Below are positions 43,784-50,805 of a DNA stretch of 63,568 bases, one piece after another. Below the pieces are notes generated by a model that searched no databases, was not told the origin of the DNA, and saw only the letters and a program-made list of their open reading frames with translations. The stretch lies in contig JADHVQ010000003.1 of NCBI GenBank assembly GCA_016783905.1, positions 1 to 63,568 on the forward strand, written 5' to 3'. This DNA is from Bacteroidales bacterium (GTDB taxonomy: Bacteria; Bacteroidota; Bacteroidia; Bacteroidales; FEN-979). The position numbers were made by a program, and so were the translations under genes. The stretch's first letter is position 1. Every line of letters begins with the position of its first letter.

Positions 43784-45133
43784 ATGCGTGTTCATTTTAT
43801 CGCTATCGGTGGTAGTGCCATGCACAACCTCGCCATCGCCCTTCATCAAAAAGGATACACTGTTACCGGCTCCGATGATGAGATCTTTGAACCCTCAAAA
43901 AGTCGCCTGGCAACCTTTGGACTACTCCCACCCACAGAAGGATGGTTTCCAGAACGGATCCACCCCGAACTGGATGCCGTGATCCTGGGGATGCATGCCA
44001 AAGCCGATAATCCTGAACTGAAAAGGGCCAGGGAACTGGGGCTACGCATTTTCTCCTACCCTGACTACCTGTATGAACAGGCCAGAAATAAAACCCGGGT
44101 GGTCATCGGCGGAAGCCACGGAAAGACGACCATCACGGCGATGATCCTTCACGTGCTGAAAAAAAACGGGATCGACTGTGATTTCATGGTCGGAGCTCAG
44201 CTCGAAGGATTTGATGTGATGGTGAAACTGAGCGATGAAGCGCCGGTTATGATCATTGAAGGGGACGAATACCTCACCTCCCCCCTCGACCGGCGTCCCA
44301 AATTCCATCTATACCGGCCCGATATCGCGTTGCTGAGCGGGGTAGCATGGGACCACATCAACGTCTTCCCCTCCTTCGAAAATTACGTGGAGCAGTTTAC
44401 CGAATTTATCCGGCTGATCACACCCCGCGGAACCCTCATTTTCTGTGACGAGGACGAGGTGCTTCAAGCCATTTGCTGCAAAACCAGGAAGGATATTACC
44501 CTGATTCCCTATACCACTCCCTCCTACCTGGTTGAACACGGAACCACCTCAGTACTGACCGATCATGGTCCCTTCCCCCTCCTGATCTTCGGCCGCCATA
44601 ACCTCCTGAATCTGAATGGTGCCCGTCTCGTATGCAATCAACTGGGGATCACGGATCTGGCATTTTACCAGGCCATTACCACCTTTCCCGGCGCCTCCAA
44701 ACGGCTGGAACTGCTGGCAAGCGAAGGAACATTCACGATGTTCAGAGACTTTGCCCATGCCCCATCCAAGGTTAAAGCCACCACCGCAGCCATGAAGGAA
44801 CAGTACCCCGGCCGGAGGTTGGTCGCTTGCCTGGAGTTGCATACTTACTCCAGCCTGAGTGAGGATTTCCTGCCCCACTATGCCGGTACCATGGATCAGG
44901 CCGATGTGGCCATCGTCTACTTCAATCCCCATGCTATTCAGTTGAAACGGCTCCCGGCTATCACACCCGACCAGATCAAAGCCGGATTCAACCACCCTGG
45001 CCTGGAGGTGTTCGATGATTCAACAAAACTGATGGAACGGTTATCGGAACTCCCGAAAGAGCATGCAGTCTTCCTGATGATGAGCTCCGGAAACTTTGAC
45101 GGACTGGATTTGAAACTAATAGAACGCAGATAA
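43784..45133 (+). CDS. Mur ligase family protein (Mpl/MurC-like)
   Basis: HFIAIGGSAM, GSHGKTT, EGDEY, DHIN, DFAHAP, MSSGNF. Confidence 0.88.
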   Translation: MRVHFIAIGGSAMHNLAIALHQKGYTVTGSDDEIFEPSKSRLATFGLLPPTEGWFPERIHPELDAVILGMHAKADNPELKRARELGLRIFSYPDYLYEQARNKTRVVIGGSHGKTTITAMILHVLKKNGIDCDFMVGAQLEGFDVMVKLSDEAPVMIIEGDEYLTSPLDRRPKFHLYRPDIALLSGVAWDHINVFPSFENYVEQFTEFIRLITPRGTLIFCDEDEVLQAICCKTRKDITLIPYTTPSYLVEHGTTSVLTDHGPFPLLIFGRHNLLNLNGARLVCNQLGITDLAFYQAITTFPGASKRLELLASEGTFTMFRDFAHAPSKVKATTAAMKEQYPGRRLVACLELHTYSSLSEDFLPHYAGTMDQADVAIVYFNPHAIQLKRLPAITPDQIKAGFNHPGLEVFDDSTKLMERLSELPKEHAVFLMMSSGNFDGLDLKLIERR

Positions 45134-45159: not shown

Positions 45160-45262
45160 ATCATTCGTAAATCCAAAATCGAATCAATCGGAGATCCCTT
45201 ACGCGCAACCTATTTCAATTTCGCAAAACAAATCATATCTTTGTTAATGTGAATCCTTCCCA

Positions 45263-48200
45263 GTGAAAACAAAGATCATCATCGTGTTGATTTTGATCTC
45301 ACCTCTGGTGACTTTATCCCAGGGGGAATTCAATATTTGGTATTTCGGAAATAAAGCCGGCCTGGATTTTAATACTGTTCCGCCAACTCCCCTTCATAAT
45401 AGTGCTATGTGGATCGCTGCTACTGCAACTGTGAGCATCTCAGATTCACTGGGGAACTTATTGTTTTATTCAAATGGTGCAATGGTTTGGAATAGAAATC
45501 ACCAAGTTATGCCAAATGGAAACGGCTTAGTGTTTGGAATGAACTATTCGCAACCGGTATATGCCGTGAAATCTATTGGGGAAGATAGTATTAATTATTT
45601 GTTTTGTTTACAAGAACCGGAATTTCCGACCTATGAGGTTGGACTTTTTTATTCGGTCATTGATATGTGTCTCGACGGAGGCTTCGGCGATGTTGTCATT
45701 GGAATGAAAAACCTGCCAGTGACCGGAGCAGAAGAAGCAAGGGATAAGCTTCACGGTACCAGGCATAATAATAACCGGGATGCCTGGATTGTCACAAAGA
45801 ATTATGATACATGGGATTTTGCAGCTTATCTTATTACATCAACTGGTATAAGCAACTCACCGGTATTAAGTTCAAGCATTGTTCATGACATAAATGCAGA
45901 ACGGTCAGGCGAAATGAAAATATCACAGGATGGCAATAAATTGTGCGCAACATATAGAACTAACGTTCCAAATTATCCAGGGTACACAATAGCAGAGTTT
46001 TGTGATTTTGATAAAACAACTGGTATCATTTCCCCATTATTTAGATTTAAGCCAGTATTTGATACTATTGTCTGGCACGCAAATTATACCGAATTTTCAC
46101 CGGATTCAAAATTGCTATATATTATAGCCGAAAGCGGTTACTACCCAATAATGGGTTGTTTTCAATATTATGCCTCGAAAACAGATTCGACCGAGTTTAT
46201 GCAAAGCCAAACAGTCATAAGTTATTCTTATGGAGCAGTGACTCGTGGTTTACAAATAGCACCCGATGGAAAAATATACGGATGCAAACCGTTTATTGAT
46301 TCACTCAGTGTCATTAATAATCCCAACATTCAAGGAATTGGGTGTAATTTCCAGTTAAATGGGATAAGTCTTGATGGAAGAATTAGTTATGAAGGTCTTC
46401 CCCAATTCCTCCAAAAAATATAAAGCATACATTCATCACACAGGTTTTTGCCAGAATGATTCCTTTTATTTCTCGTCCGATATCTGGCCGCCTCCAGACA
46501 GCATCCACTGGGATTTCGGGGATCCTGCATCCGGCGCTGCAAACTATTCCAACGACACCGCACCATCGCATATTTACACACTCCCTGGACAATACACGGT
46601 TGAACTGTTTGTCCGGCATATCGATAACCGGACCGATACCTCCTGGGTAACGATCATTATTCATGAAACGCCGGCTCCGGAATTAGGTAATGATACCACC
46701 ATCTGCCAGGGAGATTCGGTTACATTTGATGCTGGTTTCTGTTCAGGTTGTACTTATGCATGGACAAGCATTCCTCCTGGTTTTTTTTCCACCACTCAAA
46801 TGGTTACCCTCGGTCAGACTGGGATATATGAAGTTAGCATAACATCACCGAATGGTTGTATAGGCAGAGACTCCGTTCAATTGACAGTCACGGTTCCACC
46901 AGTAATAACAAATACCCCTCTTTCAAAGTCAATTTGTTCCGGGGAATCCACAGACATTCCATTAGCTTCCAATGTTCCGGCTACAACCTTTGCCTGGACA
47001 GCCATGGGCTCTTCGCTATTTGTTTCCGGCTTTGCCCCAGGCGCAGGTGATACAATAGACCAGATGCTAATAAACACCGGATCAGGAGATGAAACTGTGA
47101 CCTATACCATCACTCCTGCTGTGGGTGGCTGTGTGGGTGATTCGGTTCAATACGTGGTAACGGTCAACCCGGTAGACACTATTTTGGTTATAATTTCTTC
47201 TGAGGATCTACTCCCGCTTATCAATGGAAAGTCAACGGAATGGATGAAGGGACAAATGACTCTGTTTTTGCTTATATACCCAGTAATGGAGACACTATAA
47301 CCTGTGTACTTACTTCCTCTGATTCTATCTGTACTACCAATAATCCGGCAACCTCGAACGCAATCATTATGACAGTATATCCCGATTTACTCGTCGGTAT
47401 TTCTATCACACCTTCGGGTAATCCTGTCTGTGAAGGAATGCCGGTAACTTTCACGGTAACACCCACTAATGGAGGCAGTTCCCCAACATACCAATGGCAA
47501 GTCAATACAATCAATGCAGGAATGAACAATGCAGAATTTACATATACCCCGATAAATGGGGATATTGTGAGTTGTATGCTCACATCTTCCGAACTATGTA
47601 CATCCAACAATCCGGCATCCAGCAATCCAGTCATCATGATCGTCGTGGAAACCCCTGAAGTGACTTTCACCCCTTGTTTCGATACCATCACCACACTCAA
47701 CGCCAAACCTTTTAAGCTCAAAGGAGGAATCCCCCTGGGAGGAACCTATACCGGTCCGGGAGTGGATCAGATCACCGCTTATTTCAATCCGGCCATGGCG
47801 GGTATTGGCACCCATCAGGTCACATACAGTTATACCAATTTTGCCTTCTGTTCCGGCTCAGAAAACAGAAGCATCCAGGTTTTCCCCTCATCCCTCATGG
47901 CTTGTGGCTCATGGCTCGTCGATATTCGGGACAGTACGACATATCTGACAGTTCAACTAGGCTCCCAATGCTGGATGGCAGCGAACCTGAACTACGGCAC
48001 TGAAATCCCACATACGACCCCCCAACGCGATAACTGCCTCCCCGAAAAATATTCTCGTCCTTCGTCCCTCATCCCTCTTCCTTCGTTCTATCAGTGGGAC
48101 GAACTCATGTGTTACCAGGATGCTGAAGAACTCCAAGGCCTCTGGCCCACCCGGCTGGCATATACCTTCCGAAGCCGACTGGAACACACTGTTCTCCAAC

Positions 48201-48452
48201 TGGATCAACAACGCCTTTGCCGGGGCGCCGTTGAAATATTCGGGATATTCCGGATTCAACGCGTTTCTGAATGGGGCAGCGTTTTTTAATAAGGTTTGGG
48301 AGTATGATGCATTCGCCACCTTCTTCTGGTCCTCTACCTCACACGGGCCGTTTAAAGCATGGGCACACGGAATAAACGAGTACAACTATTCGGTGTCTTA
48401 TTATCCGAGTTATCGGGCGAATGCGTTTGCGGTGAGGTGTATGCGGGATTGA
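45263..48452 (+). pseudogene. Large secreted protein (beta-propeller-like N-terminus, PKD, Ig-like repeats, C-terminal FISUMP/Fib_succ_major domain) broken into four ORFs
   Basis: NIWYFGNKAGLDF start; WDFGDP..HIY..PGQYTV (PKD); two GGS.P.YQW.VN repeats; TVQLGSQCWMAANLN, YQWDE, GWHIPS, FWSST, AVRC. Breaks at about 46415 (+1 A), 47200 (deletion) and 48143 (+1 G). Confidence 0.8.
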
Positions 48453-48456
48453 TTCA

Positions 48457-48651
48457 TTACGCCACCTCATATTCAAATTTCATGGGCTGGGGTATCTTTT
48501 TGGATGCATTAAGTACTTCAATCCCGATGATAGATCCGTCTTTATCATAATCCAAAATAATTCCCGGCTTACCCTCATCACTTTCTTTAACCTCAGCTTC
48601 AGAAAAAGAAATGAAAAGGACATCTACTGACTTGTCATATTTTATTTTCAT
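48457..48651 (-). CDS. DUF2283 family small protein (putative antitoxin)
   Basis: MKIKYDKSVDVLFI...IILDYDKDGSIIGIEVLNASK. Confidence 0.85.
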   Translation of the reverse strand: MKIKYDKSVDVLFISFSEAEVKESDEGKPGIILDYDKDGSIIGIEVLNASKKIPQPMKFEYEVA

Positions 48652-48892
48652 GGTACTTTGTTATTTTCGATGTTCTATAAACGGTAATTACAAGAGGTGG
48701 CACTTTAAATATGTTGACAAATACCCGTATAAGATACTTCCCCTGATCTGATTCCTCTATTTTCTGATAAATCGTATAATTCTCTTCTGAAATTCTCTGA
48801 TCCGGAAAATCAATAACTTTTTTCACAACCTCTTCTGAAATCCCTCTACGGGACATTTGGTCTAACGCATGTTGTGATAGAGAGAATTCCAT
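48635..48892 (-). CDS. DUF4258 family protein (putative RelE-like toxin)
   Basis: LSQHALDQMSRRGIS...LIRVFV...VITVYRTSKITKY; overlaps DUF2283; own -7 box near 48925. Confidence 0.8.
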   Translation of the reverse strand: MEFSLSQHALDQMSRRGISEEVVKKVIDFPDQRISEENYTIYQKIEESDQGKYLIRVFVNIFKVPPLVITVYRTSKITKYHENKI

Positions 48893-48960
48893 TCTAAATT
48901 TTTATTCCCGACTTTTTTACAAAGATAAGGAATAATGAGGAACGGAATGTTGGGGCAAGC

Positions 48961-49011
48961 TTTCCAAGTTGCCGGGCAAATGCGTTTTCGGTGAGGTGTT
49001 TACGTGATTGA
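48961..49011 (+). repeat. Orphan second copy of the FISUMP gene 3' end
   Basis: Encodes FPSCRANAFSVRCLRD*, versus YPSYRANAFAVRCMRD* at 48402-48452; 42/51 nt identical by manual alignment. Confidence 0.85.
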
Positions 49012-49040
49012 GTAACGAAAATTTCGCTATTTAATTATGG

Positions 49041-49141
49041 AACGCGGATATTCGCGGATTTCACTGGGAAGGAATTTGTACTTCTAAGTTCTACGTTCTA
49101 CCTTCCAGTTTGCATTTCTTACTTCTGACTTCTGGCTTCTC
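49041..49141. repeat. CGCGGAT-core repeat followed by nnTTCT(A/G) heptamer arrays
   Basis: aacgcggat attcgcggat; acttcta agttcta cgttcta ccttcca; atttctt acttctg acttctg gcttctc, up to the rho stop. Confidence 0.78.
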
Positions 49142-49143
49142 TT

Positions 49144-50805
49144 CTAGCTGTTCATTGAGATCAGAAACTCCTCATTCGTAGCTGTGAACTTCATCTTCTC
49201 TTTCAGGAATTCCATTGCCTCAAGCGGTGTCATGTCGGCCAAATGGTTCCGGAGAATCCAGATACGGCCAAGGATATCTTTCTCAAGTAAAAGATCTTCA
49301 CGACGGGTACTGGAAGCGACAATGTCAACTGCCGGCCAGATACGCTTGTTGGAAAGTTTACGGTCCAGTTGAAGCTCCATGTTCCCGGTTCCCTTAAACT
49401 CCTCGAAGATCACTTCGTCCATCTTGGATCCTGTGTCAATCAACGCTGTGGCAATGATTGTCAGGGATCCGCCATGTTCGATCTGACGAGCTGCGCCAAA
49501 GAAACGTTTGGGTTTTTGAAGCGCATTGGCCTCAACCCCACCCGACAACACCTTCCCGGAAGCGGGAGCCACCGTGTTGTATGCGCGAGCGAGACGGGTG
49601 ATAGAGTCGAGCAGGATCACCACATCATGTCCGCATTCTACCAGCCGTTTGGCTTTTTCGAGAACGATGTTGGATATCCGTGCGTGACGTTCAGCCGGTT
49701 CATCAAAGGTCGATGAAATCACTTCGCCCTTTACACTGCGTGCCATATCGGTTACCTCCTCAGGACGCTCATCAATCAGCAATACGATCAGATAGACATC
49801 CGGATGATTGGCAGCAATTGCATTGGCGATCTCCTTTAGCAAAACTGTTTTTCCTGTCTTTGGCTGTGCTACGATCAATCCGCGTTGTCCGAATCCGATT
49901 GGAGCAAACATATCAATGATGCGGGTTGAAGTGGTGCACTCCGGATGACCGGTCAGCTTGAACTTCTTCATCGGAAAAAGAGGCGTGAGGAAATCGAAAG
50001 GGATCCGGTCTCGAACATCCTCTGCTTTCTTGCCGTTGATCAACTCTACTTTAATTAATGGGAAATATTTTTCTCCCTCTTTCGGAGGACGGATGGTGCC
50101 ACGTACCGTGTCGCCGGTCTTCAGGCCAAACAGCTTGATCTGCGACTGGGAAACATATACATCATCCGGGGAGTTCAGGTAATTGTAATCAGAAGAACGG
50201 AGAAATCCATAGCCATCTGCCATGATCTCCAGGACTCCTTCGGTGGTGATGATCCCTTCAAACTCAAAGGTATACTCCTCACGATGACGCTCGGTCGTAT
50301 GTTTTCGTGGCTGCTCACGGTTCCTTTTATCATCCTGCTGCGAAGCAGATCCAACCTCACTACCACTTAATTCTTTCTCTTTAACGGACTCAGAGGGCAG
50401 ATCGGAAGAGACTTTACCGACTATCGTCAGTTCCTCATCGGGTTTAGGATGGCTTTTTTCAACCGGCTTGTAAAACTCTTTTTTCTTGTCAACTGCAGGC
50501 TCTTTTTTCTCCTCCCTGGGTGCCTCTTTCTCAGGTTTGGATTTGGTCTTGTTATCTGCTTCAATACCTGCTTTGGCCTCCTCCTTACGCGGACGCACAA
50601 CCTTACGGGGGCGTCCCCGGCCACGCTTCACCTCTTTTTTCTCTTTGGTAATATCATCCTGAGTAGGATTCAGAGCCTGGTGGTCAAGTATCTTGTAAAT
50701 TAACTCCTGCTTCTCAAGCTTATCCACTTTGGGAATGTTCATGGATTTCGCAATCTCACGAATCTCAGACAGTTCTTTACTGTCGAGTGAAATAATGTCG
50801 TACAT
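49144..50805 (-). CDS. rho: Transcription termination factor Rho with a charged N-terminal insertion
   Basis: [53 protein letters not shown]. Confidence 0.97.

Follow-up and report, generated by a model that had tools for sequence, protein, structure and literature searches.

A predicted toxin-antitoxin pair in the window, by which we mean the whole stretch of 63,568 nt that was analyzed, lies on the opposite strand between two copies of the 3' end of a FISUMP gene, and in related genomes varied cargo occupies the same kind of place. Such pairs are found behind FISUMP ends far more often than expected by chance; a likely reason is that they are carried along when DNA is exchanged at the conserved gene end. 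The locus in the window may be explained by a replacement of the gene's 3' end that was anchored in homology and brought with it a hitchhiking, likely addictive pair, an explanation that we judge about as likely as not. The features on which the argument draws are listed below; G000 denotes the window's own genome and other G numbers denote relatives. The bacterial family is uncultured, and the host is probably of Bacteroidales type, judging by its 93 T9SS sorting domains and the type of promoter.

43784..45133, forward strand: Mur ligase gene (mpl-like), left border of the variable site by comparison with congeners
45263..48452, forward strand: large surface-protein gene with a C-terminal Fib_succ_major domain, a signal-like start and PKD/Ig repeats (the FISUMP gene)
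47980..48271, forward strand: part of the FISUMP gene for which runs X1 and X2 show a second allele, like G003 in its 3' part (157/158 nt)
48275..48397, forward strand: 123-nt tract identical to the FISUMP 3' end of G003:C44, by sequence comparison
48402..48452, forward strand: tail of the current FISUMP gene, reading YPSYRANAFAVRCMRD up to the stop
48457..48651, reverse strand: DUF2283, predicted antitoxin of 64 aa (E 1e-20), its stop 4 nt from the FISUMP stop
48635..48892, reverse strand: DUF4258, predicted BECR-fold RNase toxin of 85 aa (E 9e-9)
48920-48927, reverse strand: TATCTTTG, candidate promoter -7 box, 27 nt upstream of the ATG
48961..49011, forward strand: orphan FISUMP tail, reading FPSCRANAFSVRCLRD up to the stop; the DNA 3' of it resembles that after other FISUMP stops in the genus
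49144..50805, reverse strand: rho, right border of the variable site by comparison with congeners

The repeated gene end that the first-pass annotation had pointed out is real. Sequence comparison within the window finds 48402-48452 and 48961-49011, with 559 nt between them, identical at 42 of 51 nt, whereas shuffling the downstream region 300 times gives best tail matches with a mean of 22.7 and a maximum of 28; on the orphan side the likeness continues weakly back to about 48934. The three synonymous differences that had been claimed are present as three synonymous codons, beside four non-synonymous ones. An assembly artefact, which had been named as a possible refutation, is ruled out: single contigs of runs X1 and X2, which may be source samples, cover 48272-49032 and 48272-49400 with zero differences to the window, one metagenome contig covers 48369-49588 at 99.9%, and both junction regions are covered, in pieces, by run X6 from a separate study. 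Since the run contigs cross the locus unchanged, the duplicated tail does not stem from the assembly. A separate observation is a perfect 15-bp inverted repeat at 45254-45268 and 49059-49073 that encloses the whole insert. One of its arms overlies the FISUMP start codon, just these two copies occur in G000, the left arm has one mismatch in G003, and the placement may be due to chance.

The genes between the tails are an AT-rich, opposite-strand DUF4258-DUF2283 pair, as had been described, with E values of 9e-9 and 1e-20 and a GC content of 33-37% in the pair region against about 50% in its surroundings. The toxin gene comes first and overlaps the DUF2283 gene by 17 nt. The promoter box that had been ascribed to the pair is upheld in part: TATCTTTG matches what we take to be the Bacteroidota -7 box, TAnnTTTG, and a box of this type is also found upstream of 9 of 12 homologous pairs, but a sigma-70 promoter scan of the locus came out empty, as did a search for intrinsic terminators. 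With small genes coupled by the overlap and a putative promoter of their own, the pair has the layout of a type II toxin-antitoxin system. Complex prediction supports binding of DUF2283 to DUF4258, with a score of 0.70 for the pair and 0.01 for the best of three controls; the mark used for such predictions is reached by 116 of 157 solved pairs and by 2 of 215 mismatched pairs. At least 96% of the predicted contacts are common to the runs, the pLDDT of the partners is at least 83 with alignments of 10 and 14 rows, and the predicted interface includes H8, R16, T70, Y72 and T74, which are invariant in the toxin alignment. When DUF4258 was modeled from its single sequence (pLDDT 79), the structure did not clearly match any fold. 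G000 has one copy of each gene and none further.

In the available text of PMC11980606 and bioRxiv 10.64898/2026.08.28.747851, DUF4258 (PF14076) is a predicted BECR-fold RNase family that is experimentally uncharacterized. The window pair resembles the family described there in its family match and as a small bicistron; however, the order given in PMC11980606 is A/T, whereas the window pair has the toxin first, and DUF2283, which adjoins DUF4258 in the window, is without mention in the available parts of both sources.

Homologous pairs elsewhere have a varied history. The toxin gene has decayed in the pairs of G008 and G092, so addiction is not permanent. The FISUMP-linked DUF pairs do not form a single clade in the tree (3 changes, weak support) and are found in both orientations; with several clades and both orientations, first arrival behind a tail would have happened more than once, and a single origin of these pairs is neither shown nor excluded by the sequences. 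In genus g4 a DUF4258-DUF2283 pair occupies one conserved site by an ABC permease gene in six genomes (loci L152, L153, L155, L157, L158 and L160), with the toxin decayed in at least one of them.

The FISUMP gene of the window is damaged and mosaic. Relative to an intact counterpart of 1080 aa in G003 it carries three frameshifts, near 46400, 47250 and 48130, which are also present in the run contigs (no indels among the differences). It is 87-96% like the G003 gene at this site (G003:C119) over 45201-46400 and just 70-77% over 47200-48400, and yet the 123-nt tract matches G003:C44 at 100%, against a background likeness between the window and G003 of 86.5% for rho and 82% for the upstream 4.2 kb. 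This points to a recent exchange between species. As the tract does not reach the cargo, and G003 has different cargo, that exchange would have carried none. The second allele of the neighboring segment is represented by an alternative contig of 347 nt, covering 47950-48301, with a depth of 10.9 in X1 and 21.1 in X2. Added to the depth of the window allele (15 and 65), this comes close to that of the flanks (about 25 and 81). The second allele has 92 letters where the window has 97, and G003's cargo, next gene and rho are without coverage in runs X1 and X2. Judged from these contigs, the simplest reading is a segment polymorphic within the population; it may alternatively be a paralog of a co-occurring strain. 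The tract, the second allele and the mosaic gene are what one finds in a homologous anchor that recombines. The first-pass annotation had further supposed that the process acts on a ligand-binding surface domain. What is exchanged, however, is a conserved domain end and not a variable business end, and the gene is frameshifted, so ligand-binding diversification is without support. Within the FISUMP domain, window positions 48052-48086 belong in frame to a heptamer-like intergenic repeat family with many matches in the genome.

G000 contains 15 FISUMP domains and, by a matrix scan with a score gap from 39 to 14, 12 tails belonging to the close subfamily; the window's is the single orphan among them. 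The search of the genome for further orphan tails, which had been proposed as a check, thus produced no second case in G000. The window orphan matches the tails of paralogs on C113 and C50 at 43 and 42 of 51 nt and the adjacent tail at 42 of 51, whereas the adjacent tail matches the same paralogs at 46 of 51 and is closer to them than to the orphan. The orphan is equally near to distant paralogs, which speaks against a simple, recent copying of the adjacent end; the stranded end may have belonged to this gene itself or to a paralog that closed a short array. Behind another FISUMP end of this genome, at about 3900-2850 of C31, lies a transposase-like ORF, its identity guessed from the sequence.

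Comparison of the locus in relatives, also proposed in advance, proved informative. The Mur ligase gene directly adjoins rho in 7 of 10 congeners, and in the congener G008 the site is empty. G003:C44 has the same plan as the window at the same site with other cargo: a FISUMP end, an opposite-strand HEPN-nucleotidyltransferase (HEPN-MNT) pair that ends 2 nt from the FISUMP stop, and a 430-nt FISUMP 3' remnant. Upstream of this remnant lies promoter-like DNA resembling that before the window gene. The window orphan and the G003 remnant agree at 38 of 51 nt, and their likeness after the stop, in part low-complexity, ranks 4th-5th of 143, which does not establish them as orthologs. In G007 three successive FISUMP ends precede rho in an intact gene-pair-gene-pair-gene array, whose whole paralogs are separated by HicB and by DUF5615-DUF433; in G002 a HepT gene lies about 430 nt beyond rho. 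At a locus unrelated to mpl-rho, G008:C90, from a congener, is about 80% like window positions 48381-48740 in one unbroken alignment, which leads from the 3' end of the FISUMP gene across the stop to DUF2283 and the end of DUF4258; no orphan lies behind the pair. The G008 pair is sister to the window pair (support 99/99). G008:C90 thus has the anchor beside foreign DNA that a donor would have, and represents a donor-like relative and not the actual donor.

The arrangement recurs beyond this site. Our survey covered about 616 kb around FISUMP ends, from the 150 listed of 347 matches and with ends at contig edges mostly skipped. Among the listed ends the matrix found 144 tails, of which 8 are orphans, and none in shuffled DNA; orphan ends are not peculiar to FISUMP, since in G000 2 of the 93 ends with T9SS sorting also look like orphans. 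Toxin-antitoxin-type genes lie behind 14 of 136 gene ends (Pfam on 81 of 118 nearby ORFs), so most FISUMP ends are without such cargo. Cargo between tail copies, predicted to occur elsewhere, is found at nine loci in eight genomes and six genera (G000, G003 with two, G011, G014, G043, G047, G056 and G080); the cargo varies and includes HEPN-MNT in G003:C44, AAA_14-DUF4143 in G003:C102 and Bro-N in G014. Two of these are serial arrays. G080:C207 has a FISUMP end, DUF2283-DUF4258, a tail, DUF4160-DUF2442, a second tail, DUF433-DUF5615 and then the next FISUMP gene, with tails of 110-125 nt that are 84-91% alike, and the array of G056:C49 is similar. Additional tails without a gene between them occur in G023, G046 and G011, and an orphan ahead of cargo in G041. 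Pairs also lie between intact paralogs (G065, G043, G047), and their stops are often 0-50 nt from the FISUMP stop.

The 16 orphans examined range from 26 to about 480 nt, all inside the conserved domain and none with the upstream repeats. Two of them (G011 and G007:C21) are clearly joined to a paralog's 5' end, and at the other 14, the window's included, no 5' remnant of a paralog was detected with a library that comprised 40 paralog starts only and also neighbors' tails, which blunted the test. The tail varies freely at third codon positions, so its conservation is at the protein level. Three side observations concern individual FISUMP loci. Four FISUMP genes in G023 (L212, L213, L214 and L215) and one in G002 (L032) are disrupted where the FISUMP domain begins, by frameshifts or small deletions next to short 7-nt-type repeats; the same 20-nt stretch precedes both orphan tails of L062 (G011), suggesting that one orphan was itself duplicated; and a SocA/Panacea-HTH antitoxin lies behind a FISUMP end in G015 (L086:804-1945), its 114-aa partner without a Pfam match.

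The association is also seen when starting from the cargo. We sampled loci of five families in 41-81 genomes regardless of FISUMP and counted them as linked if a FISUMP tail ended no more than 1.5 kb upstream. This applies to 6 of 17 DUF2283 and 2 of 14 DUF433 loci and, among the best 30 of 52, 52 and 50 matches, to 10 HEPN, 3 HepT and 1 DUF2442 loci. In total 22 of 121 loci (18%) lie behind a FISUMP end and 99 have no tail nearby; the 22 include the window locus, kin are not independent, and six DUF2283 rows represent a single orthologous site. The chance expectation is about 1%, estimated from a total of 305 FISUMP matches in 25 family genomes. As a control, 5 of 121 loci lie behind a T9SS sorting domain, although T9SS-sorted ends are roughly 7-fold commoner; the control model and the copy numbers come from G000 alone (90-93 T9SS sorting domains against 12 tails), and the T9SS family is more stable than FISUMP. 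The pairs are thus strongly enriched behind FISUMP ends. Outside the bacterial family, 2 of 62 DUF2283 loci on genome contigs have a tail, both already counted; of five metagenome loci, one is the window sequence and another adds a FISUMP-linked locus whose pair runs on the same strand.

If the 3' end was replaced, the incoming DNA would have consisted of a FISUMP 3' part with the DUF4258-DUF2283 pair behind it. One crossover likely fell inside the conserved FISUMP domain. The second joint to the chromosome likely lay 50-90 nt ahead of a resident FISUMP stop, so that this resident end was stranded; no parent sequence close enough to place that joint, or a microhomology at it, turned up among the relatives. 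The direction of the event, an illegitimate second joint and uptake of the DNA by transformation are inferred; ComEC is present in 16 of 16 family genomes searched, and also in 10 of 14 control genomes. The pair would be retained through addiction, as recombination between the tails would delete the predicted antitoxin with it. We favor replacement because it accounts for the serial arrays and the lengths of the orphans as well as for the G008 junction and the mosaic gene, although illegitimate capture is rare according to the available text of PMC5361080, which counts against it. The earlier proposal that recombination swapped the 3' end together with cargo therefore holds for the exchange and the G008 junction, but the orphan is not traceable to this gene. 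An internal deletion of a paralog may give the same picture (G011, G007:C21, G003), and erosion of a dead gene would likewise leave short ends. An alternative explanation, which we take seriously as possible, is the decay of a tandem array (FISUMP, pair, FISUMP, rho), in which the second gene body was lost, the addictive pair with its promoter was kept and no cargo entered through a tail. The intact G007 array ends at rho with its cargo between whole paralogs, pairs lie between intact paralogs in three genomes, 5' and 3' remnants are fused in G011 and G007:C21 and probably in G003 and G014, the window gene is itself decaying, and pairs stabilizing arrays are a described model in the available part of PMC2654758. 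The residue of a deleted paralog, which the first-pass annotation had given as a refutation of its own reading, is thus found at some loci (2 of 16 clearly, G003 probably), but the window is among the 14 orphans where the 40 paralog starts detected no 5' remnant. Decay would also require two separate near-total deletions in G080, each leaving a tail of similar length and sequence, and it leaves the G008 junction elsewhere and the arrival of pairs behind FISUMP genes unexplained. Replacement and paralog decay may both act in turn.

The tail would be irrelevant if FISUMP genes and pairs were both mobile and gathered at tolerant sites, for example between convergent genes. An mpl-rho site that is empty in most congeners and filled in others, the HepT gene beyond rho in G002, the six DUF2283 loci at the unrelated ABC-permease site and the 99 loci without a tail agree with this, yet we consider it clearly unlikely given that pair stops are often so close to the FISUMP stop, that pairs lie behind the 3' end at many sites, and that the association with T9SS-sorted ends is far weaker. 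The serial tail-pair-tail-pair arrays of G080 and G056, and Fib_succ_major domains being known DGR targets (PMC5758913, available text), could instead suggest that the tail is the recognition site of a dedicated recombinase or reverse transcriptase, building integron-like or DGR-like arrays. This is very improbable: conservation of the tail is at the protein level, the variable orphan length seems to leave no fixed crossover point, and there is no adenine bias, 3 of 9 differences having A in either copy. A reverse transcriptase was found neither beside the locus nor in G000 (89% complete), and a DGR template repeat is ruled out. We put forward only tentatively that conserved FISUMP ends form a dispersed, integrase-free cassette system of serial landing pads for toxin-antitoxin and defense-like genes, in which each addition would duplicate the tail; if true, addictive cargo would protect costly paralog arrays from collapse.

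Taken singly, the window locus is just a scar beside a pseudogene. Its wider interest is that the movement and landing of chromosomal toxin-antitoxin pairs without mobility genes are poorly explained, and that 18% of sampled loci, and one third of HEPN loci (best 30 of 52), lie behind one paralog family. Hitchhiking on a conserved coding anchor offers a testable route for such pairs, would extend displacement arrays past secreted toxins, and comes with DUF2283 as a predicted partner for the DUF4258 family of predicted toxins. We found no published report of toxin-antitoxin pairs or orphan tails behind FISUMP genes in the literature searched, which had supplements outside it and subscription journals sparse.

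Several known systems are similar in part; the comparisons refer to the available text of the sources cited. Rhs C-terminal and T6SS effector-immunity displacement (PMC5361080, PMC5727410) shares with our loci a conserved coding anchor, a 3' module and stranded older ends, and strings of orphan 3' regions downstream, as in polymorphic toxin loci, are present in G080, G056, G046 and G011. However, the Rhs/T6SS anchor is the core before a variable toxin, whereas in FISUMP genes a lectin-fold domain provides the anchor with its conserved end, and the FISUMP orphans are too short to serve as reusable domains, unlike displaced Rhs/T6SS ends. There is no variable toxic C-terminal domain, as the Fib_succ_major end is conserved among paralogs while the cargo behind like tails varies. 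Nor is there a cognate immunity gene of the tip downstream; the two cargo genes form a free-standing module, with a putative promoter of their own and in either orientation, and those on the opposite strand in the window encode products predicted to bind each other. The likeness to C-terminal displacement drawn in the first-pass annotation is thus one of working and does not make this a polymorphic toxin locus. In the downstream copy of a target's 3' end the locus resembles DGR targets with Fib_succ_major (PMC5758913), but the window copies are without adenine-specific differences and a reverse transcriptase was not found. Vibrio superintegrons (PMC2654758) likewise hold toxin-antitoxin cassettes among dispensable, repeat-flanked genes, but the repeats at FISUMP arrays are protein-coding tails. 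Homology-facilitated illegitimate recombination (PMC5361080) also combines one homologous anchor with foreign DNA and a displaced gene end; here, in contrast, the anchor is a paralog family of 10-40 copies, which provides many landing sites per genome.
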